NCBI GenBank assembly: GCA_902618195.1
Contig: CACMZO010000003.1
Span: forward strand, 1,176-65,175
Direction: 5' to 3'
Origin: an uncultured SAR116 cluster alpha proteobacterium
Lineage (GTDB): Bacteria > Pseudomonadota > Alphaproteobacteria > Puniceispirillales > Marisalimonadaceae
DNA: 64,000 bases
Shown here: one piece after another, positions 5,306-39,423 of the stretch
How positions within the stretch are numbered: position 1 is the first letter of the stretch
How the letters are laid out: the number at the start of each line of letters is the position of its first letter
Translations under genes and position numbers: made by a program
The notes under the pieces: model-generated
The model's input: only the letters and a program-made list of their open reading frames with translations
Databases searched by the model: none
Told to the model about the DNA's origin: nothing

Positions 5306-5385
5306 GATAAAAACCTTTTTATAGAGTAAATACTATTTACATGTTAAATAAGTTATATAAATTGTTCTATAAAAAATAAAAAATT

Positions 5386-6600
5386 ATGCCATTTATTGTT
5401 TATTTAACTTGTTTTTCTCAAGTCCTTTCAATGGCTGGATTTGCAGCTTGGCCAATTTATCTTATTGATTTACAAAATTTATGGTCTCTTACAAATCTTG
5501 AAGCAGGCTGGATAAGCGGCGCATTTTTTTTTGGGTACATTTTTGCCACCCCTTTTCTAGTTGGGTTAACCGATAGCTACGATTCAAAAAAAGTTTATTT
5601 TATATCATCATTAATTGGTTCAATTGGCCTTATTTTATTTGCTTTATTTGCAAACGGATTTTATTCAGCCCTGCTCATGTGGAGCATAGTAGGAGCTGGT
5701 TTTGCTGGCACATATATGCCAGGTCTCCAAATTTTAAACGAAAGATTAGATGCAAAAGGTAAAGAAAAATATGTATCAGTGTATACTGCTTTTTTTGGTT
5801 TAGGCACTGCAACATCATTTTTCATTCTTGGTATTTTAAAAGAGTATAATTTAGACTGGAGCTATAGTTTTATTCTTGTAGGATTTTTTCAACTATTAAG
5901 TGGTATTCCAATAATCTTATTTTCAGGCCCAAGAATCGAAATAAAGCCATATATTAAATTTAGTGGCATTTTTAAAATATTAAAATCAATTTACAATGTT
6001 TTTAAAAATAAAAAAGCAATGCCATATATTATAGGTTATGGAGGTCATACATATGAACTTTTTGGATATAGATCCTGGACTTTTGCATGTATTGTTTTTT
6101 TAAGCTCTACTTATAATGTTTATTTAAGTAATATTTTTATTGCAAATTTTTTGGCTATTATTGGATTAACTGGCATATTTTCTTCAATAATTGGCGCTCA
6201 ATACTGTATAGGAAAAAATAGACCTTTAATAATTAGCTATATGGGACTTATTTGTTTTTTTGGCTCTATAATCACAGCATTTTCATTTTGGATTAACTTG
6301 TATTTAGCACTTCTTTTTATATTTATTTATAATATATTAATCATAATGGATTCTGGCTCTTTAACAACTGGGACTGTCCTTAATGGTTCATCTCAAGACA
6401 GAGGTTCAAGATTAGCTCTACATTCTATTATAGGATTTTTAGGTGGGGCATTAGGAGGGCCTATTGTAGGGTTAGCTTTAGATAGCTTTGGTGGCGAAAA
6501 TAGTAAATTATCTTGGAGTGTTGGTTTCGTTGCTTTGGGCTTAGGGTCGTTATTATCATCATATGTTTTGAAAAAAAATTCAAAATACAAATTAAAGTAA
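5386..6600 (+). CDS. MFS-type transporter
   Basis: 404 aa and highly hydrophobic, with about 12 predicted TM segments. Divergent from the acyl-CoA synthetase operon. Confidence 0.7.
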   Translation: MPFIVYLTCFSQVLSMAGFAAWPIYLIDLQNLWSLTNLEAGWISGAFFFGYIFATPFLVGLTDSYDSKKVYFISSLIGSIGLILFALFANGFYSALLMWSIVGAGFAGTYMPGLQILNERLDAKGKEKYVSVYTAFFGLGTATSFFILGILKEYNLDWSYSFILVGFFQLLSGIPIILFSGPRIEIKPYIKFSGIFKILKSIYNVFKNKKAMPYIIGYGGHTYELFGYRSWTFACIVFLSSTYNVYLSNIFIANFLAIIGLTGIFSSIIGAQYCIGKNRPLIISYMGLICFFGSIITAFSFWINLYLALLFIFIYNILIIMDSGSLTTGTVLNGSSQDRGSRLALHSIIGFLGGALGGPIVGLALDSFGGENSKLSWSVGFVALGLGSLLSSYVLKKNSKYKLK

Positions 6601-32525: not shown

Positions 32526-32948
32526 CTAATTAAAGTAATCTTTTATAGCAACACAACATTCTTCTAATGAGAAATGAACTTCAGTTGCATAAAATTCCAA
32601 GAAAGGATGCAATGTGTCTCCTTTTCCTCTCCATACAATTATAATTTTGTTTTTTGTATGTGCATGTGCAACTTCAGCCATGCTTCCCCAACGTTTACCT
32701 GGTTGATTTTCTCTCATGTCGCATAATAAAACTGTGCTATTAGAAATATCCTGTAAATCCATTTTTACTATTCGATTAACATTATTTTTATTGTTATAAT
32801 CACAGTGTTGTTCCCATCTTCTTGTTGGGTCAAGTGTTCTTATACCTTCTTTGGAAAGTAAATTAGTAGCTTGCTCTCTCCACTTCATCATTTCATTTTC
32901 TTTGTAACCTTCCATGCCACCACATAAATAAACGTAATTTTTATCCAT
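32526..32948 (-). CDS. Nucleoside 2-deoxyribosyltransferase-like protein (NDT/DNPH1-like Rossmannoid fold)
   Basis: 140 aa. 'VYLCGGMEG...WREQ', 'DLQDISNSTVLLCDM' and 'GSMAEVAHAHTKNKIIIV' fit the NDT-like pattern, with a Glu in the G-x-x-x-E-x-G/A-x-A segment. Confidence 0.5.
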   Translation of the reverse strand: MDKNYVYLCGGMEGYKENEMMKWREQATNLLSKEGIRTLDPTRRWEQHCDYNNKNNVNRIVKMDLQDISNSTVLLCDMRENQPGKRWGSMAEVAHAHTKNKIIIVWRGKGDTLHPFLEFYATEVHFSLEECCVAIKDYFN

Positions 32949-32966
32949 TATAAACCTATAAATTTA

Positions 32967-33608
32967 TTATAATTTCTTTCGATAATAGTGAATTTTTAAA
33001 TCTTCTTCACTTATTGGAGTTTGTAATAATCTCACAAAACTTTCTTGTTCACCAATTATTAAATATTTATCATCAACAGCTTCAATATACCTTCTAAGCC
33101 CTTCAGCTAGTTGAGCCTTTGCAGATCTAGGTAATTCATCTAATTCATTCATAAATCTTCTAACGCCATTAGCCACATAATTCGCAGGTGTATTTTTAGA
33201 TTCATGTAAACCTGGTGATAAAACAAATTCAGGTTTATCAACCTTATAAACTTCCTTTATTGCTTTTAAATATTTTTTTTCTGAAAAATCATTACCAAAA
33301 TAATGTTTAGCAACATCTTTTGTTAATTGAAGCCAATACGGCCATCTTAAAAATTTATAGCCAATATTTGTAAAATATTCAGCTCTTTCTTCATCTCTTT
33401 TTAATTTCCAAACGTTTTCATAATGATCGGGGCCTTCGTACTCCCAAATAATTTTCATTTTATCTGAGAAGCAATCAACCATATAATATTTTCTTTTATT
33501 ATTTGGATCATAGGCAAATCTTTTCTGACTACCCCATTCTCCATTAGGCCAAAAAATTTTAGCAGTAATTAAAAGATTTTTTTCTGTCATCTCACCTTTA
33601 GGTATCAA
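32967..33608 (-). CDS. Hypothetical protein with a Vsr/DUF559-like PD-(D/E)xK endonuclease-type core
   Basis: 'YYMVDCFSDKMKIIWEYEGPDHYE...KLKRDEERAEYFTNIGYKFLRWPY' resembles the D...E-x-D/E-G-x-x-H...RD..R...L...G...LR pattern of DUF559/Vsr-like nucleases. The C-terminal half is helical and unassigned. Confidence 0.4.
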   Translation of the reverse strand: MIPKGEMTEKNLLITAKIFWPNGEWGSQKRFAYDPNNKRKYYMVDCFSDKMKIIWEYEGPDHYENVWKLKRDEERAEYFTNIGYKFLRWPYWLQLTKDVAKHYFGNDFSEKKYLKAIKEVYKVDKPEFVLSPGLHESKNTPANYVANGVRRFMNELDELPRSAKAQLAEGLRRYIEAVDDKYLIIGEQESFVRLLQTPISEEDLKIHYYRKKL

Positions 33609-33610
33609 TT

Positions 33611-33904
33611 TTAGTTTCCTACACCATTTTTGTAATCAGGAACTAAATACATTAATGCTAATTTAGAATATTCTTCTAAATTGTTGTCAACAGAAATACC
33701 TTTTGCTTTTAATTTTTTTGGTCCATTTTCTATTTTTAATCTATTTTCCCATTCTCCTTGAATGCCAATCGTTATGAGTGTGGTAGTATCAGCAACATAC
33801 TTTATTAATGCTTTTGAGTGAATATTAATATCTAAGTTATCTGAGTTGCCTGGCCTAACAGGTTCATCCACAATTCCAATCAGTTTTGTCATAACATTTT
33901 CCAA
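33611..33904 (-). CDS. Hypothetical 97-aa protein. It resembles the N-terminus of a KAP-family P-loop NTPase with a degenerate Walker A, so it may be a gene remnant.
   Basis: 'DNLDINIHSKALIKYVADTTTLITIGIQGEWENRLK' parallels the KAP pattern D-x-L-x...A-x-x-L-x-x-[YI]...I-G-I-x-G-x-W-G-S-G-K-[ST]. The GSGK[ST] is replaced by ENRLK and the rest of the NTPase is absent. Confidence 0.3.
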   Translation of the reverse strand: MENVMTKLIGIVDEPVRPGNSDNLDINIHSKALIKYVADTTTLITIGIQGEWENRLKIENGPKKLKAKGISVDNNLEEYSKLALMYLVPDYKNGVGN

Positions 33905-33968
33905 ATTTGTTGAATTATTTTTTTATTTTTTTTATCATTAGTCAAGATTATTTATTTAGGAGAAGTCT

Positions 33969-34211
33969 ATGGGTATTCTAGATTGGATGGCTGCTGGATA
34001 TTTAGCTAAACGAGGAAGTAATAAATTAAACCCTCCACAGGTTACGGTACCTAATGGCTTTGAAATGAGAGCTTTAAAAGCAAAAGGCATGAATGAATAT
34101 ACTATTGTGTATTCTAAAAAAGGAAGTGGTTCAACTTCACAATTTACCATAAGTAGAAATACAAGATCAATGACTGGTGGTTGGAAATTTCATTGGCCTG
34201 AAAATTATTAG
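33969..34211 (+). CDS. Hypothetical small protein (80 aa), the only plus-strand gene in the island
   Basis: Strong SD AGGAGA (33958-33963) lies 5 nt upstream of ATG 33969. I recognise no motif. Confidence 0.5.
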   Translation: MGILDWMAAGYLAKRGSNKLNPPQVTVPNGFEMRALKAKGMNEYTIVYSKKGSGSTSQFTISRNTRSMTGGWKFHWPENY

Positions 34212-34214
34212 AAA

Positions 34215-34652
34215 TTATAACAGATAATTTAACACATCCTTCCAGGTTTTAAATTTTTCACTTCCAAATTGTATTAATTCACCTTTAAAATCTCCAGCTC
34301 CATTAGCCAACCTATCATCAATGAGGTAATCCCCAAAATTCAAGTTTTTGTTATGACTAAGAATTAATCGTTTGTATGCATACTTACCGAGATATCTCTT
34401 TACCCATAATAACTTGTCTGACCAAGCCGTTGGATTGTTCCATGGTGCAGTTGAAAGAATGTAAGTATCATATGTTTTAGACAATTTTTGATAAGATTCA
34501 ATAGCATTAGGCATAGGATTCATTAATGAAAAAATTCTTGGAACCTCATCGTAATTTTTAAGATATTTATTTTTATCCTTTTCTGACAAGTTGTTAATAC
34601 CAGATTTGAAGTCAACCAAAACATTGTCCATATCTACAAATAAAATTTTCAT
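34215..34652 (-). CDS. 5'(3')-deoxyribonucleotidase (NT5C-type HAD phosphatase)
   Basis: 'MKILFVDMDNVLVDF' carries the DxDxV/T HAD motif I typical of NT5C. 'YILSTAPW' and 'DYLIDDR' are motifs II and III. ATG 34652 sits 2 nt after the upstream TAG; the track start is TTG 34664. Confidence 0.7.
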   Translation of the reverse strand: MKILFVDMDNVLVDFKSGINNLSEKDKNKYLKNYDEVPRIFSLMNPMPNAIESYQKLSKTYDTYILSTAPWNNPTAWSDKLLWVKRYLGKYAYKRLILSHNKNLNFGDYLIDDRLANGAGDFKGELIQFGSEKFKTWKDVLNYLL

Positions 34653-34654
34653 CT

Positions 34655-35368
34655 CTAATTGCAATTATAATAAAATAAGGGTCCTCTTACCTCATGCGCA
34701 GGAAAATTTAATAACGAATAACCTCTAAATTTTTGCATTTTTTCTTCTTTGTATCCATTAAACTTATATCTTTTATTTTTAGTTGAAGATCTTGCTGTTT
34801 CCCAATTACATATTCTATAAATACCCTTTATTATACCGTTATAAACACCTATGCCATATTCTGCTTTTTTAGCTCTATTAATATTTAATACCCAATTACC
34901 TCTTATTTTGTTATATAGCATCTCTTCATCCATATCCTTGTTCCAAGCTTTATTAATTTTAAAACATACTGCAGAAATATTTTCTTTAAACTCTTCTCCT
35001 TTATAAATTTCATCAATTAAATTAATATCCATTATTCCAAATTTATCAGAATTTATTCCTTTAACTTTATTTGTTATTTGATCAACACCAAAAACATCTA
35101 TTAAGGTTGCTTCCAATAAAAAAGCCTCATCTTGATTTAAACCATGCCTAATAATTTCAACCTTAGGACCTCCACTTTTTTTTAATGAGTTAATAATATC
35201 AAATTTTGGATCTTTAATATCTAATTTAGATTTTTGGAAAAGATGAGAAAAAACTCTATTTCCTTTCCCCTTACCTATATAAAAGTAATTTTGGTTTTCT
35301 CCAGGGTACTTCAACCCGTATACATAATATTTTAATGCATTTATAGTTTTTGGTGAAAATTTTCTCAT
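34655..35368 (-). CDS. GIY-YIG nuclease-domain protein (COG3680-like) with an unassigned C-terminal domain
   Basis: 'YYVYGLKYPGENQNYFYIGKGKGNRVFSHL' is GIY-(x10)-YIG followed by the conserved Arg. Its ATG overlaps the upstream TGA (ATGA at 35365-35368). Confidence 0.65.
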   Translation of the reverse strand: MRKFSPKTINALKYYVYGLKYPGENQNYFYIGKGKGNRVFSHLFQKSKLDIKDPKFDIINSLKKSGGPKVEIIRHGLNQDEAFLLEATLIDVFGVDQITNKVKGINSDKFGIMDINLIDEIYKGEEFKENISAVCFKINKAWNKDMDEEMLYNKIRGNWVLNINRAKKAEYGIGVYNGIIKGIYRICNWETARSSTKNKRYKFNGYKEEKMQKFRGYSLLNFPAHEVRGPLFYYNCN

Positions 35369-36669
35369 ATATTTTTGGTTTTTGAAAAATTAATACCTGA
35401 TTTATTAAATAAATTAACAATTTCTACATACAAGTCAGTATTAGCCATAGTTACAAGTTCAAACAAATTCTCATTTGGGTTATCGGCAAATAAAGATTTT
35501 TTGTTTAAATAATATTCAAAAAATAAATTGTGAGAATAATCATGCATATCTCCAAATCTAATAGAATAATCTTCATCTATATGCTTGTAATCAATTGCAA
35601 TTTTATTAACTATTTGGATTGCTTCTTTTAATTTATTTGAGTGTAAATTAATATCTAATTTTAACTTTATACTCTCTTTTGAAAAATCTGATACTGCAAC
35701 ATTTTCAATGGGTTGTGATATAAACATTTTGTTTGGCAAGGCAGTTATGTTTCCGCTCAAGTCTTCAAGAAGTATAGACCTCAATCCTAATTTTTTTACA
35801 TTTCCCTCATGTCCTCCAATTTTAATTTTCTGACCAATTTCAAAAGGTCTTTGTAAATAAAGTAAAATACCTCCTATCAGATTTCCAATAAAATCTTGTG
35901 CTGCCAAAGCAACTGCCATCCCTCCAAGTCCAACTCCTGCTAAAATAGAAGTAGAATTGTATCCAGCGCTCTCCAAACTTAATGAAAGACCTATTGCCCA
36001 AATCAAAATTTGAAAAATTGTGCTTACAGCAGCTTCAACTGCCTCATTAACACTTGTGTCATCTCTTTGTAAATAAGGAATTATAATTAGTTCGTGTGAC
36101 ATTCTATAAAAAGTAGAGAGGAACCATGTTATAAATAAAATTATAACCGCCGGATAATAATTGTAATAATAGTCAATCCAGTTCCCTGACAATTCTAATG
36201 TATTTATTATGATATTTGAAGCAACTGTAATGAGAATAAGATAAACTGGTAATTGAAATTTTTTAAAATTTTCACCATATTGTACGTATCTAACTATTCT
36301 TGATAATCTTAAAAATCTTGCGAGCCTTAATAATCGTGTTAACCTAAATAATGGCGCCCAACCAAAATTTTCACTTAAATTTTCAACAAAAGGTTCTATA
36401 AGAATTGGAATACTGGCCAATACTATTACAAGATCAAATTTATTCCAATTGTCTTTTAAATACAACTTTATGCCTAAATTCCATACTTTAATAATTAACT
36501 CTATCAGAAAAAAAACAACACACCCATAATCAACCCAATTAATCCAATTTCCAGTTTTTTGTGTTAAATTTGGATCTAAGTCCAAAGCAATAAAAATAGA
36601 AGCATTAATTAATACAACTAGCATTACTAGTTTTTCATTAATTAAATAAGTTAAAATTGATTTGGTCAT
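35365..36669 (-). CDS. Voltage-sensor-like (S1-S4, Ion_trans-type) domain fused to an MscS-family mechanosensitive channel domain
   Basis: S3-like 'DNWNKFDLVIVLASIPIL'. S4 'LFRLTRLLRLARFLRLSRIVR' has Arg at every third position seven times. MscS core: 'GVGLGGMAVALAAQDFIGNLIGGILLYLQRPFEIGQKIKIGGHEGNVKKLGLRSILLEDLSGNITALPN'. Confidence 0.75.
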   Translation of the reverse strand: MTKSILTYLINEKLVMLVVLINASIFIALDLDPNLTQKTGNWINWVDYGCVVFFLIELIIKVWNLGIKLYLKDNWNKFDLVIVLASIPILIEPFVENLSENFGWAPLFRLTRLLRLARFLRLSRIVRYVQYGENFKKFQLPVYLILITVASNIIINTLELSGNWIDYYYNYYPAVIILFITWFLSTFYRMSHELIIIPYLQRDDTSVNEAVEAAVSTIFQILIWAIGLSLSLESAGYNSTSILAGVGLGGMAVALAAQDFIGNLIGGILLYLQRPFEIGQKIKIGGHEGNVKKLGLRSILLEDLSGNITALPNKMFISQPIENVAVSDFSKESIKLKLDINLHSNKLKEAIQIVNKIAIDYKHIDEDYSIRFGDMHDYSHNLFFEYYLNKKSLFADNPNENLFELVTMANTDLYVEIVNLFNKSGINFSKTKNI

Positions 36670-36671
36670 TT

Positions 36672-37304
36672 TTATTTTTTATGAGATTTAAAATTTGCTG
36701 AAATTATTCCTGCCGGCATTGCTATGATTCCAATCCCACATATGCCCACAATACCTGCAAAAACTTTTCCTAAAACTGTAATTGGATAGACATCTCCATA
36801 ACCTACAGTTGTTAATGTTGAAATTGCCCACCACATGGAACGTGGAATACTTCCAAATGCTTCAGGTTGAATGTTTCCTTCAAGTAGATAAATAAAAATT
36901 GAACTAGCAAATAGAATTAATAATGTAATTGCAAAACAAGCATAAAGTTGAAATTTTGAAGCAATTAATGCCTGAGAAAATAATCTCAATGACGGATTAT
37001 TCTGAATTAATTTTAACAATCGAAGCATCCTTAATAATCTAACTATCCGAAGAAGTAAAAAGTCTGATGAAAATGCAGTCATTAATGAAGGAATAATTGC
37101 TAATAAATCAATAATTGACATCGGACTAAAAATAAATTTTATTCTGCCCATAAATCCACTATATTTCTTAATTCTGCCAGCAACAATAATTCTCAAAAAG
37201 TACTCTAAAGTAAAAATTATTAAAAAAATTGTCTCAAAAATATTTAATGCATATTCATATTTATTTTTAAAAACATCTTCGGTCTCAAGAACGACCGAAA
37301 TCAA
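36672..37304 (-). CDS. Voltage-gated (Kv/KvAP-like) potassium channel. The N-terminus is unresolved (see finding).
   Basis: Selectivity filter 'TLTTVGYGDV', S4 'LLLRIVRLLRMLRLLKL' and S3 'SIIDLLAIIPSL'. The track start is a TTG inside the predicted S1 helix. The reading frame stays open upstream to 37412. Confidence 0.8.
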   Translation of the reverse strand: MISVVLETEDVFKNKYEYALNIFETIFLIIFTLEYFLRIIVAGRIKKYSGFMGRIKFIFSPMSIIDLLAIIPSLMTAFSSDFLLLRIVRLLRMLRLLKLIQNNPSLRLFSQALIASKFQLYACFAITLLILFASSIFIYLLEGNIQPEAFGSIPRSMWWAISTLTTVGYGDVYPITVLGKVFAGIVGICGIGIIAMPAGIISANFKSHKK

Positions 37305-37465
37305 AGATAAAATAATTACTGTGGTTATAAACTTATTAAGAAATGTACTTTTTTCATCATCATGAAATGATTTAAAAAGATATGAGAGAATTTTTTTAAT
37401 TTTTCTAAACCTCTAATTACAAAATATTAAAAATTTTTAATTTAAATCGAATTCCATAATATATT

Positions 37466-38932
37466 TCAAACATATGTTTGTAAAACTTTTAATAATTTAT
37501 ACATTGCTAATGTATCTAACTCACAATATTTAAGCGCATTATTAAAAAATATGGTCTCATTTTCTTTTTTTAATTCTCCCAGAAAATATTTTTCAAAATT
37601 AATTGATACTTCCATTCCACCTTGGATCTCCAGGTCATCATAACTTTCATTAGTAAACGTAGGTAATACTGCTTTGATCGACGCAGACCCATTTTGTTTT
37701 GGTGAATATAAATGTCTTGATCTAAAGGGTCTTAAAAGGTCAATCATTCTCTCATTAATCTTCAATAAATCATGTTTTATTGCAGGAAAAATATCTGATA
37801 GGGAAGAAATTACATTTTTTTCAAAACTTTGATTGTATACAATTACTGACCCAGTTTTTTTTATACTTTTCAACAATGTTTCTGCAAATTCTAATCTAAA
37901 ATCTTTTTTGTCTTTACTAATATATTCAACATGTTTTATCTCACTATTTTCATTTTCTTGAATATGCAATGAAAACTGAAATGGAATATTTTCATAAGGT
38001 TTTGAGTTTTTAAAAATTGGTATTGCTGGTCCAAAAGTTTCAAAATCTAAAAAATAATATGGAAAGATTAAAGTATCTAAAAACTTTTTAATTTCTCTCT
38101 TATTAACAAATATATCACCAGATAAATATGAGTTGACATCCACTAATTTATTACCTTTGGGATAGTCTTTTATATCAAGTTCTTTTATATCAATTGAATT
38201 ATTATTTCTATGAACTTCTTCTGCTTTTTTTGCAGAAAAAACATTAAAAATATTATATTTTGGAAGACCTTTCCAACAGTATTCTTTAAACTGACATTCC
38301 TTACAATGTGAACCAATATCTACAATCGGTTCATTTTTAACTGACAAAGATTCAATTAATTCTGAAATTTGTAAACTTATTATATTCCCTTTATGCAAAA
38401 CTTTTTTAGTAACATCAGATTTTAGAAATAATTTATTTACATCAATTTGATCACCTCTTTGATAATTTTTGTTAAGGTGAAGAACTGATAATTTTGTTAC
38501 ATTTAAACCTAATGATTTAAATACATGGTTTTGAAAACTTAAGTCTTCAACATGATAATCTTTGACACCTGTGGAACTTTTAACTTCTATTAACTCCCAA
38601 CTATCATTATCTTTTATCAAAATATCTGCTAATGCAAAAATACCTTCAGCTTTGTTAAAACCTACACCCTCATAAATTAATTTTCCACCATCATTAATAT
38701 ATTCAAAAGTTTCTTTAAAGGCATTTTCAACTTCATAGTAAGGAGATTTTGGTTGAAAACCTTTACCAAAATATTCTCTAGCTAATAAACCAACTTTATT
38801 ACCTATTTCAAATCTGTAATCTTTAAAATCATCACCTTTACAAAGTTCAGTTTTATGTAATGACAACCACAAAGACTTTTTGCAATTTAAACCATCTAAA
38901 TAATTTGACTTTGATAAAGAATTTTTCATCAT
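37466..38932 (-). CDS. DUF2779-type protein: N-terminal Cas4/RecB-like PD-(D/E)xK nuclease with a Cys cluster, plus a C-terminal DEDD/RNase-H-like exonuclease-like domain
   Basis: 'SKSNYLDGLNCKKSLWL'. 'LADILIKDNDSWELIEVKSS' is D...E-x-K. 'HCKECQFKEYC' is CX2CX5C, with an N-terminal Cys as in Cas4. C-terminal motifs: 'YFLDFETF', 'VYNQSFEKNV' and 'YCELDTLAMYKL'. Confidence 0.6.
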   Translation of the reverse strand: MMKNSLSKSNYLDGLNCKKSLWLSLHKTELCKGDDFKDYRFEIGNKVGLLAREYFGKGFQPKSPYYEVENAFKETFEYINDGGKLIYEGVGFNKAEGIFALADILIKDNDSWELIEVKSSTGVKDYHVEDLSFQNHVFKSLGLNVTKLSVLHLNKNYQRGDQIDVNKLFLKSDVTKKVLHKGNIISLQISELIESLSVKNEPIVDIGSHCKECQFKEYCWKGLPKYNIFNVFSAKKAEEVHRNNNSIDIKELDIKDYPKGNKLVDVNSYLSGDIFVNKREIKKFLDTLIFPYYFLDFETFGPAIPIFKNSKPYENIPFQFSLHIQENENSEIKHVEYISKDKKDFRLEFAETLLKSIKKTGSVIVYNQSFEKNVISSLSDIFPAIKHDLLKINERMIDLLRPFRSRHLYSPKQNGSASIKAVLPTFTNESYDDLEIQGGMEVSINFEKYFLGELKKENETIFFNNALKYCELDTLAMYKLLKVLQTYV

Positions 38933-39015
38933 ATATTTGTATTACATAAAAATTTAAGAGTTATTAATATAAGATTGAAGCAGTAACTGATGCTTATCAA
39001 ATCATTTTCAATAAA

Positions 39016-39423
39016 TTAATCTTCATTAAACCTTTGATTATTTAAATGTTTTTGAAATACAAGAGGTTCATCAATATATTTTAAAATTATTTTGCCTGAT
39101 CCTGTGCCACTAAGGTCAACGGTTCCAAAGCCAAATATACGACCTAAAAGGCTTTGCGTAAGATTAACCTCTTCAATTCTATCAAGAGAAATCTCTTCAG
39201 TATCTCTTCTTATCCATCCTATTTTTTGAATATATCTTTCATTAGTTAAAACTCTTTCAGTTGTCCATTTGTTAATCATCATTTTTAAAAATATAAAAAT
39301 TCCAATTAAAACAATTCCTAATACTAATAGATATAAAAAAGCAATTAAACTATATGTCCAATGAAATTCAACTCTATAAATTATAGTTTCATTTTTTCCA
39401 ATGGTTTTTTCTACATAACTCAT
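39016..39423 (-). CDS. Membrane protein with a bacterial PH domain (bPH_2 / YdbS-YdbT-like)
   Basis: 135 aa. A two-TM hairpin ('YSLIAFLYLLVLGIVLIGIFIFL') is followed by 'TERVLTNERYIQKIGWIRRDTEEISLDRIEEVNLTQSLLGRIFGFGTVDL', typical of bPH_2. Confidence 0.65.
   Translation of the reverse strand: MSYVEKTIGKNETIIYRVEFHWTYSLIAFLYLLVLGIVLIGIFIFLKMMINKWTTERVLTNERYIQKIGWIRRDTEEISLDRIEEVNLTQSLLGRIFGFGTVDLSGTGSGKIILKYIDEPLVFQKHLNNQRFNED

Follow-up and report, generated by a model that had tools for sequence, protein, structure and literature searches.

A gene that joined a complete S1-S4 voltage sensor to a full MscS channel was found in a 64,000-nucleotide stretch of DNA (the window) from an uncultured SAR116 cluster alphaproteobacterium (GenBank assembly GCA_902618195.1, contig CACMZO010000003.1, positions 1,176 to 65,175 of the forward strand). 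Its product, P0001, was encoded by a single uninterrupted open reading frame (ORF) of 434 amino acids with an ATG start, located on the minus strand at 35365..36669. Both domain families were well known and their combination was present in public databases, but it had gone unremarked. From the conserved residues and the topology of the protein, we infer that P0001 was probably a voltage-modulated channel with an MscS-type pore. The parts of the gene, with the evidence used to delimit them, were the following:

35365..36669, minus strand, stop codon included: the gene for the fusion of the voltage-sensor domain (VSD) and MscS, P0001 (ORF list, translation, Pfam, AlphaFold2 (AF2) model).
36277..36636, minus strand: S1-S4 voltage-sensor domain, residues 12-131 (Ion_trans hidden Markov model (HMM), CaV3.2 profile match, sensor-only fold matches, invariant residues); in the AF2 model its helices were S1 12-31, S2 42-65, S3 74-91 and S4 from about 98 or 106 to 131.
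36277..36354, minus strand: S4 helix, with the arginine ladder R109-R127 and then a conserved RYVQ end (sequence, CaV3.2 IVS4 register).
36199..36270, minus strand: linker helix, transmembrane helix (TM) 5, residues 134-157 (AF2 secondary structure, start of the alignment with YnaI and non-fusion proteins).
35968..36180, minus strand: TM6 and TM7, residues 164-234, the equivalent of the MscS TM1-TM2 paddle (AF2 helices 164-202 and 209-234, alignment with Escherichia coli MscS (EcMscS)).
35851..35952, minus strand: pore-lining TM8, residues 240-273, the equivalent of MscS TM3a/TM3b (conservation, MSL1 alignment).
35695..35850, minus strand: MscS beta-domain, residues 274-325 (PF00924, AF2 strands).
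35368..35694, minus strand: C-terminal alpha/beta vestibule domain, residues 326-434 (weak PF21082, Foldseek matches to EcMscS and YnaI).

The N-terminal part of P0001 matched the Pfam family Ion_trans (PF00520) with an E-value of 1.1e-16 and 61.3 bits against a cut-off of 25. This match covered residues 13-156 and corresponded to profile positions 6-147 of 241, i.e., to the sensor half only. The rest of the protein was recognized by MS_channel_1st (PF21088, residues 217-258, 26.4 bits, cut-off 23.1) and MS_channel_2nd (PF00924, E-value 1.1e-15, 57.9 bits, cut-off 20.2), and the match of PF21082 to the C-terminal domain was weak and below the cut-off (E-value 0.024). The matches to Ion_trans, MS_channel_1st and MS_channel_2nd were much stronger than chance could give, and the latter two placed P0001 in the MscS family (TC 1.A.23). 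Only MscS-type models of NCBIfam were matched, at residues 174-424. In the Pfam scan we found no P-loop or pore family in P0001, since there was no Ion_trans_2 (PF07885) match and Ion_trans stopped short of its second half. P0001 lacked the S5-P-loop-S6 domain and the selectivity filter and was therefore not one of the voltage-gated P-loop cation channels (Kv, BacNaV), with which it had the sensor alone in common. In contrast, its neighbour P0002 possessed the full-length PF00520 domain, Ion_trans_2 and the TVGYGD filter. The AF2 model of the full-length protein (mean predicted local distance difference test score (pLDDT) of 81.7) had eight TM helices followed by beta and alpha/beta domains, and S4 was linked to TM5 by just 2-3 residues.

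An earlier note on this DNA, made from the sequence alone, had described an Ion_trans-type N-terminal sensor with no P-loop or selectivity filter, continuing into an MscS TM3/beta stretch, and this description agreed with the results above (the stretch was located at residues 245-313). The S3 string that it quoted, WNKFDLVIVLASIPIL, was found at residues 75-90. Its likeness to the NaV/CaV consensus was supported as well, because the best PDB sequence matches were the CaV3 repeat IV and NaV sensors. Finally, the seven S4 arginines that it counted at every third position were R109, R112, R115, R118, R121, R124 and R127; our own mark of an S4 helix was at least four basic residues with this spacing.

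Residue conservation was assessed in two alignments that covered all clades of the family, namely A2 with 24 sequences and A3 with 27 sequences. The invariant residues of the sensor were N22 in S1, D47, C50, F54, E57 and K61 in S2, N76 and D79 in S3, and R118 and R121 in S4. Flavobacteriales, Vibrio, Magnetococcales and Comamonadaceae all had the S2 motif F54-x-x-E57-x-x-x-K61 unchanged. At least 90% of the wider family had R115 and R124, and the flavobacterial clade additionally had R109 and R112. In canonical sensors, the charge-transfer centre is formed by F-x-x-E in S2 together with an Asp in S3. P0001 contained such a centre, consisting of F54, E57 and D79, which were aligned to F-x-x-E and N-x-x-D of CaV3.2. 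Moreover, the family profile matched the sensor of CaV3.2 repeat IV (PDB 9AYG) with a domain E-value of 5e-13, and the S4 arginines were in register with the ladder of Arg and Lys residues of CaV3.2 IVS4.

The whole AF2 model retrieved only chains of the MscS family (EcMscS, YnaI and MSL1) in Foldseek, with 265-350 aligned columns and E-values from 1e-14 to 1e-12. Therefore, the fold of the sensor was searched with a separate sensor-only model (pLDDT 76.9). All of its top 50 PDB matches were voltage sensors (TMq 0.5-0.71), including Nav1.7-VSD4/NavAb, TPC2, Cav2.2, KCNQ and Ci-VSP with TMq of 0.56-0.71. The earlier note would have given up its proposal if the N-terminal region had proved unlike Ion_trans sensors. 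However, the similarity was found by HMM, by the profile search of PDB sequences and by fold.

The sensor of P0001 belonged to the NaV/CaV lineage and was not a copy from the Kv neighbour. When compared by BLASTP to the BacNaV-like channel encoded beside the betaproteobacterial member of the family, the sensor showed 32% identity with an E-value of 2e-9. We also considered that it could be a local duplicate of the adjacent Kv gene, and this was rejected because the comparison with the orthologue of the Kv neighbour gave an E-value of 11. A word-index search with the sensor alone returned family members only and was thus uninformative about its nearest free-standing relatives.

Mean pairwise identity within the family reached 57% in the sensor and 61% in the MscS core, against 43-44% in the linker helices and 42% in the C-terminal domain. 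Hence, the sensor was conserved as strongly as the pore core. Such a pattern would be expected from a working sensor rather than from a generic anchor. The latter alternative was that the sensor fold served as a structural anchor or an enlarged lipid-sensing paddle in a channel gated by tension only, with the S4 arginines kept for lipid headgroups or for folding. Other MscS paralogues (YnaI and MscK) do carry extra N-terminal helices that have no known role in voltage sensing, and the MscS half of P0001 was closest to the YnaI and MSL1 types with five TM helices. Also, the number of S4 charges was not constant in the family, since Flavobacteriales had seven of them and Proteobacteria had four or five. 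On the other hand, at an overall identity of 30% across phyla, no change was seen in F54, E57, D79 and the outer acidic D47, or in the arginines at the core of S4. Together with the equal conservation of the two halves, this made the anchor an unlikely explanation, although it was the most credible of the alternatives to voltage modulation.

The most conserved segment of the protein was TM8, where mean column identity reached 85%. The invariant columns of this region were G245, G247, G249, G250, M251, A252, A254, A256, Q258, D259, N263, G267 and F276, and L255 was also on the invariant Gly/Ala-rich face of the helix. Residues 240-276 were aligned with the pore helix of Arabidopsis MSL1, so that P0001 possessed a Gly/Ala-rich pore-lining helix of the MscS TM3 type, with hydrophobic gate residues and with an R-P-F turn leading into the beta-domain. 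The gate residues of TM8 were presumably equivalent to L105 and L109 of EcMscS. The AF2 model also contained the beta and alpha/beta domains of the MscS vestibule fold. Both YnaI and the non-fusion MscS relatives of about 360 amino acids began to match the family profile at TM5, in which P141 and Y143 were conserved.

This conservation of the pore was relevant to another alternative, namely, that the sensor itself was the conducting element (along a proton path like that of Hv1, or through an omega pore), while the MscS part mainly provided a scaffold for oligomerisation or acted as a sensor that did not conduct. P0001 had no P-loop, and voltage-sensor proteins without a pore, such as Hv1, conduct through the sensor. 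However, the MscS pore helix was the best-conserved part of P0001, and its S4 arginine ladder was unbroken, which is normally a seal of the sensor. Additionally, Hv1 uses an Asp in S1 for proton selectivity, whereas the conserved mid-S1 residue of the family was Asn (N22). Conduction through the sensor was therefore considered very improbable.

The distribution of positive charges provided the topology. Mean numbers of Lys and Arg were 2.5-3.2 in the N-terminal tail and in the S2-S3, S4-TM5 and TM6-TM7 loops, which were predicted to be cytoplasmic, and 0.0-0.8 in the S1-S2, S3-S4, TM5-TM6 and TM7-TM8 loops, which were predicted to be periplasmic. Thus, the protein was N-in with eight TM helices and C-in. 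It followed that S4 was in its canonical orientation, the vestibule was cytoplasmic and the two halves were compatible with each other. MscS and YnaI have the N-out topology; on this basis, S4 would stand where the outermost helix of YnaI crosses the membrane from out to in.

Based on these observations, we propose that in an ancestral MscS protein with five TM helices, similar to YnaI, the outermost N-terminal helix was replaced by a complete S1-S4 sensor of the NaV/CaV type. The protein would be expected to assemble as a heptamer because all solved MscS homologues are heptamers (seven chains per PDB entry). In such an assembly, TM8 (residues 240-273) would surround the central pore, the vestibule would lie in the cytoplasm and seven voltage sensors would be placed on the lipid-facing rim. 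S4 would be tied by its link of 2-3 residues to TM5, and TM5 would lead into the TM1-TM2 paddle, which in MscS passes membrane tension to the gate. Given this continuity from S4 through TM5 to the paddle, the motion of S4 would be expected to bias gating by voltage. Namely, a voltage-driven change in the position of the paddle would alter the tension threshold, or it would by itself open or inactivate the pore. The outcome would be a release valve for osmolytes and ions that depended on the membrane potential.

Several points weighed against this proposal. Seven sensors on a heptamer had no structural precedent, and the path of coupling from S4 to the gate was conjectural. Foldseek E-values for the sensor alone were modest (0.01-0.3), even though all of the matches were voltage sensors. 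Confidence of the AF2 model was low in the S3-S4 loop and at the start of S4 (pLDDT 52-67 at residues 91-110). Besides, the Ion_trans profile ran weakly over TM5 as if it were S5, which made the origin of this helix ambiguous. A stronger version of the proposal, in which P0001 was a truly voltage-gated heptamer with a large pore and represented a new sensor-effector class with S4 driving the tension paddle, was possible but doubtful. In this version, the Kv gene, presumably co-transcribed with the fusion gene in the flavobacterial clade, could complete a minimal electrical module, where K+ efflux would set the potential and the potential would license or block the bulk release of solutes.

Among the proteins with known structures, YnaI of E. 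coli (PDB 6URT, 6ZYD, 5Y4O) was aligned with the MscS half of the family by its residues 44-298, including the extra helix before TM1 (profile E-value about 6e-25), and Arabidopsis MSL1 (PDB 6VXM, 6LYP) was aligned with the same half with an E-value of 1.4e-18. Both had the pore helix, the beta-domain and the vestibule fold in common with P0001. However, they possessed one plain outer helix with neither an S4 arginine ladder nor a charge-transfer centre, where P0001 had a four-helix sensor; YnaI had five TM helices and P0001 had eight with the N-in topology. EcMscS (PDB 2OAU and 6RLD, among others) had the same core fold, with its residues 27-247 matching profile positions 178-400 (E-value about 1e-24; Foldseek E-value about 1e-14). 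In comparison to P0001 with its canonical sensor attached, EcMscS had three TM helices, no dedicated sensor and weak voltage effects that came from scattered charges. At the position of the TM3 kink, EcMscS had Gly113 and P0001 had an Asp (D259). According to PMC6833973 (citing Balleza 2009), Asp was the more common residue of the superfamily at this position.

The NaV, CaV and BacNaV sensors (CaV3.2 repeat IV in 9AYG, NavAb and Nav1.7 VSD4) contained the S2 motif F-x-x-E-x-x-x-K/R, the S3 motif W-N-x-x-D and the R-x-x-R repeats of S4 in register with P0001. In these channels, the sensor was attached to a tetrameric S5-P-loop-S6 pore, which P0001 did not have, its sensor being located on a predicted heptameric pore. 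Moreover, S4 of these channels was followed by the S4-S5 linker helix (about 15 residues), in contrast to 2-3 residues in P0001. Closer in design were Ci-VSP, Hv1 and SLC9C1 (sNHE), where the sensor was also coupled to an output other than a P-loop pore, and the Ci-VSP sensor was among the fold matches of the P0001 sensor with TMq of 0.68-0.69. However, the outputs in these proteins were a cytosolic enzyme, the sensor itself and a transporter, whereas in P0001, from a bacterial family, the output would be a mechanosensitive heptamer.

The known outputs of voltage sensors are tetrameric P-loop pores, a phosphatase, the sensor's own proton path and one transporter. If the voltage modulation of P0001 is true, the heptameric MscS-type pore would join this list as a new output, and the family would offer a natural experiment in coupling the motion of S4 to an unrelated gate. 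It would also suggest that the release of osmolytes by bacteria could be conditioned on energisation of the membrane. EcMscS was first described as a voltage-modulated channel (Bass et al. 2002, as cited in PMC4560390 and discussed in PMC6833973). P0001 reopened the question of voltage modulation in MscS with a sensor that was unmistakable. The hypothesis was directly testable, since orthologues were present in culturable Vibrio and patch-clamping of E. coli spheroplasts is a routine assay for MscS channels.

When 5.8 billion proteins were searched through a word index, we found about 42 clusters with 43-67% identity to P0001 and lengths of 427-480 amino acids, all of which contained both PF00520 and PF00924; the earlier note had suggested a search for this pair of families in one polypeptide. 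These clusters were drawn from the NCBI, JGI, ENA and Logan assemblies. Additionally, with one genome scanned for each species, full-length relatives at 30-32% identity were found in cultured Vibrio (V. chagasii, V. sagamiensis, Vibrio sp. HI00D65 and SWAT-3), in metagenome-assembled genomes (MAGs) of Magnetococcales, and in betaproteobacterial and Comamonadaceae MAGs. Members from Vibrio, Magnetococcales and Comamonadaceae had the same two-part Pfam architecture, with Ion_trans limited to S1-S4. Isolate genomes with the fusion in one ORF were those of V. chagasii, V. lentus, V. azureus and V. sagamiensis, and the accessions of the Vibrio orthologues included WP_105024112.1, WP_017105660.1 and WP_021709817.1.

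In the least credible alternative, the fusion was an artefact in which two genes had been joined, whether through a frameshift, an error of sequencing or chimeric assembly. The genome containing the window was a MAG that was 61% complete and consisted of 64 contigs, and the neighbouring Kv gene had an anomaly at its start codon. However, the S4-TM5-TM6 junction was gap-free in the family alignment. Since the one-ORF architecture recurred in independent assemblies, in isolate genomes and across several phyla, the artefact, which the earlier note had also named as a risk, was refuted.

The family was rare. Namely, when the representatives of 1.84 billion clusters at 50% identity were searched exhaustively with a profile, about nine full-length representatives and a few fragments were obtained. 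The next matches (E-value about 1e-60) were MscS proteins of 350-375 amino acids that covered profile positions 141-435 only. These proteins had a single N-terminal helix ahead of the TM5 equivalent; thus, the nearest non-fusion relatives were YnaI-like proteins with five TM helices. A maximum-likelihood tree was built from the MscS half of the fusion proteins and of the 45 nearest non-fusion proteins, and 28 of the 29 fusion proteins were separated from the latter as one clan (support 100/98). The remaining protein, P0071 (436 amino acids, divergent but bearing a sensor), did not group with the main fusion clade; it could have branched off early or have arisen by a separate fusion. A single ancient fusion may lie behind the whole family.

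The fusion was absent from all 40 examined relatives of the window's genome (from the same genus, family or order), which had separate MscS proteins of about 285 amino acids and channels of about 270 amino acids with six TM helices. Thus, it was an accessory gene in this lineage. In the MAG of the window itself, which was 61% complete, the fusion gene was the sole PF00924 match, and nearly all of the relatives had the MscS of about 285 amino acids. A second Ion_trans gene with six TM helices was observed on another contig of this MAG (C6:23538-24221). One Flavobacteriales MAG (isolate L_MB10) contained only the C-terminal 204 amino acids of the protein, starting from the end of TM7 (L020:4076-4690). 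There was no sensor upstream, and therefore this copy was a 5'-truncated remnant of the family.

The names given to family members in NCBI and UniProt were only 'mechanosensitive ion channel domain-containing protein', 'MscS' or 'uncharacterized'. The earlier note knew of no characterised chimera of a voltage sensor and MscS, and we likewise found no description of such a protein in the full-text literature searched, the coverage of which did not include the 2012 review of 15 MscS subfamilies by Malcolm & Maurer. A profile search of PDB returned no chain with both halves, and in the Protein Atlas there were generic MscS clusters only (score 0.85).

The gene was located in an accessory region of the window together with the following features:

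32526-39423: accessory island with low GC content (25-29%), between ADH and rhodanese genes on one side and altronate dehydratase on the other.
36672..37412, minus strand: upstream Kv gene encoding P0002 with six TM helices and the TVGYGD filter (Ion_trans E-value 8e-37, Ion_trans_2).
34655-35368, minus strand: GIY-YIG protein (Pfam LEM-3_GIY-YIG), matching PD-T4-3 of PADLOC with an E-value of 1.5e-34.

In addition to the two channel genes and the GIY-YIG gene, the island contained genes for a nucleoside deoxyribosyltransferase-like protein, DUF559, NT5C, DUF2779 with a Cas4-like N-terminus and bPH_2. The ATG of the GIY-YIG gene overlapped the stop codon of the fusion gene (ATGA). Similar sets of genes, shuffled in order and strand, flanked the homologues at loci L002, L080, L082 and L084, and DUF2779, GIY-YIG, NT5C or a PvuRts1I/SRA enzyme was found near the flavobacterial homologues of 47-67% identity. 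This environment was consistent with a role in conflict with phages, where P0001 would sense the depolarisation caused by phage entry or by lysis proteins and open a large non-selective pore, leading to abortive infection together with the adjacent nucleases. Moreover, a Zot-like inovirus gene adjoined the Vibrio copy. However, the order and the orientation of the nuclease genes differed from locus to locus (the GIY-YIG gene was convergent in L002, L080 and L082), and we therefore regarded them as island company and not as parts of one system. The neighbours in Magnetococcales and Betaproteobacteria were ion transporters, channels or housekeeping genes with no nucleases among them. Neither P0001 nor P0002 had a PADLOC match, and tblastn against 50,697 phage records revealed no full-length copy of the family, only partial matches to the MscS domain. 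The recurrence of the nucleases in Flavobacteria could also be due to synteny inherited among related genomes. Thus, the anti-phage role was improbable, clearly more so than the anchor.

A conserved operon of the Kv, fusion, GIY-YIG and NT5C genes was considered as well and was not supported, because adjacency of Kv was limited to the window, L002, L080 and L081, the nucleases were shuffled and the proteobacterial loci did not contain them. In the window, the stop codon of the Kv gene was 2 nucleotides before the ATG of the fusion gene, and in its nearest homologues (L002, L080 and L081) the Kv neighbour overlapped the start of the fusion gene. No Kv pairing was seen at the more distant flavobacterial loci or at the proteobacterial loci examined. 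Across phyla, the neighbours of the fusion gene were often ion channels or transporters, which we counted in favour of voltage modulation.

As for individual loci, the betaproteobacterial MAG encoded the BacNaV-like channel with six TM helices 88 nucleotides downstream of the fusion gene (L016:5396-6280). In Comamonadaceae, a Bestrophin-like protein was encoded 9-12 nucleotides upstream (L017:1113-1925 and L018:1367-2182), and in Magnetococcales the fusion copy was flanked by two CDF cation-efflux genes (L019:2359-3771 and 5359-6384). The Zot-like gene of Vibrio, encoding an inovirus assembly ATPase, was divergent and adjoined the fusion gene in two lineages with different downstream flanks (L013:2299-3704 and L015:2407-3486). 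It might be that the fusion gene of Vibrio travels with a filamentous prophage.

Finally, the listed ORF of the Kv gene in the window began at the TTG codon at 37304, and the homologous frame, including S1, extended further to the TAG at 37413-37415. This open frame had 246 amino acids and covered Ion_trans profile positions 3-238. On the minus strand between these two codons (37304-37415) there was no ATG, GTG or TTG, and homology to the orthologue of 264 amino acids (L002:4694-5488) continued upstream of the TTG. Either the gene was decaying and its S1 was truncated, or translation began at an unusual codon such as ATT, or the MAG contained a base error.

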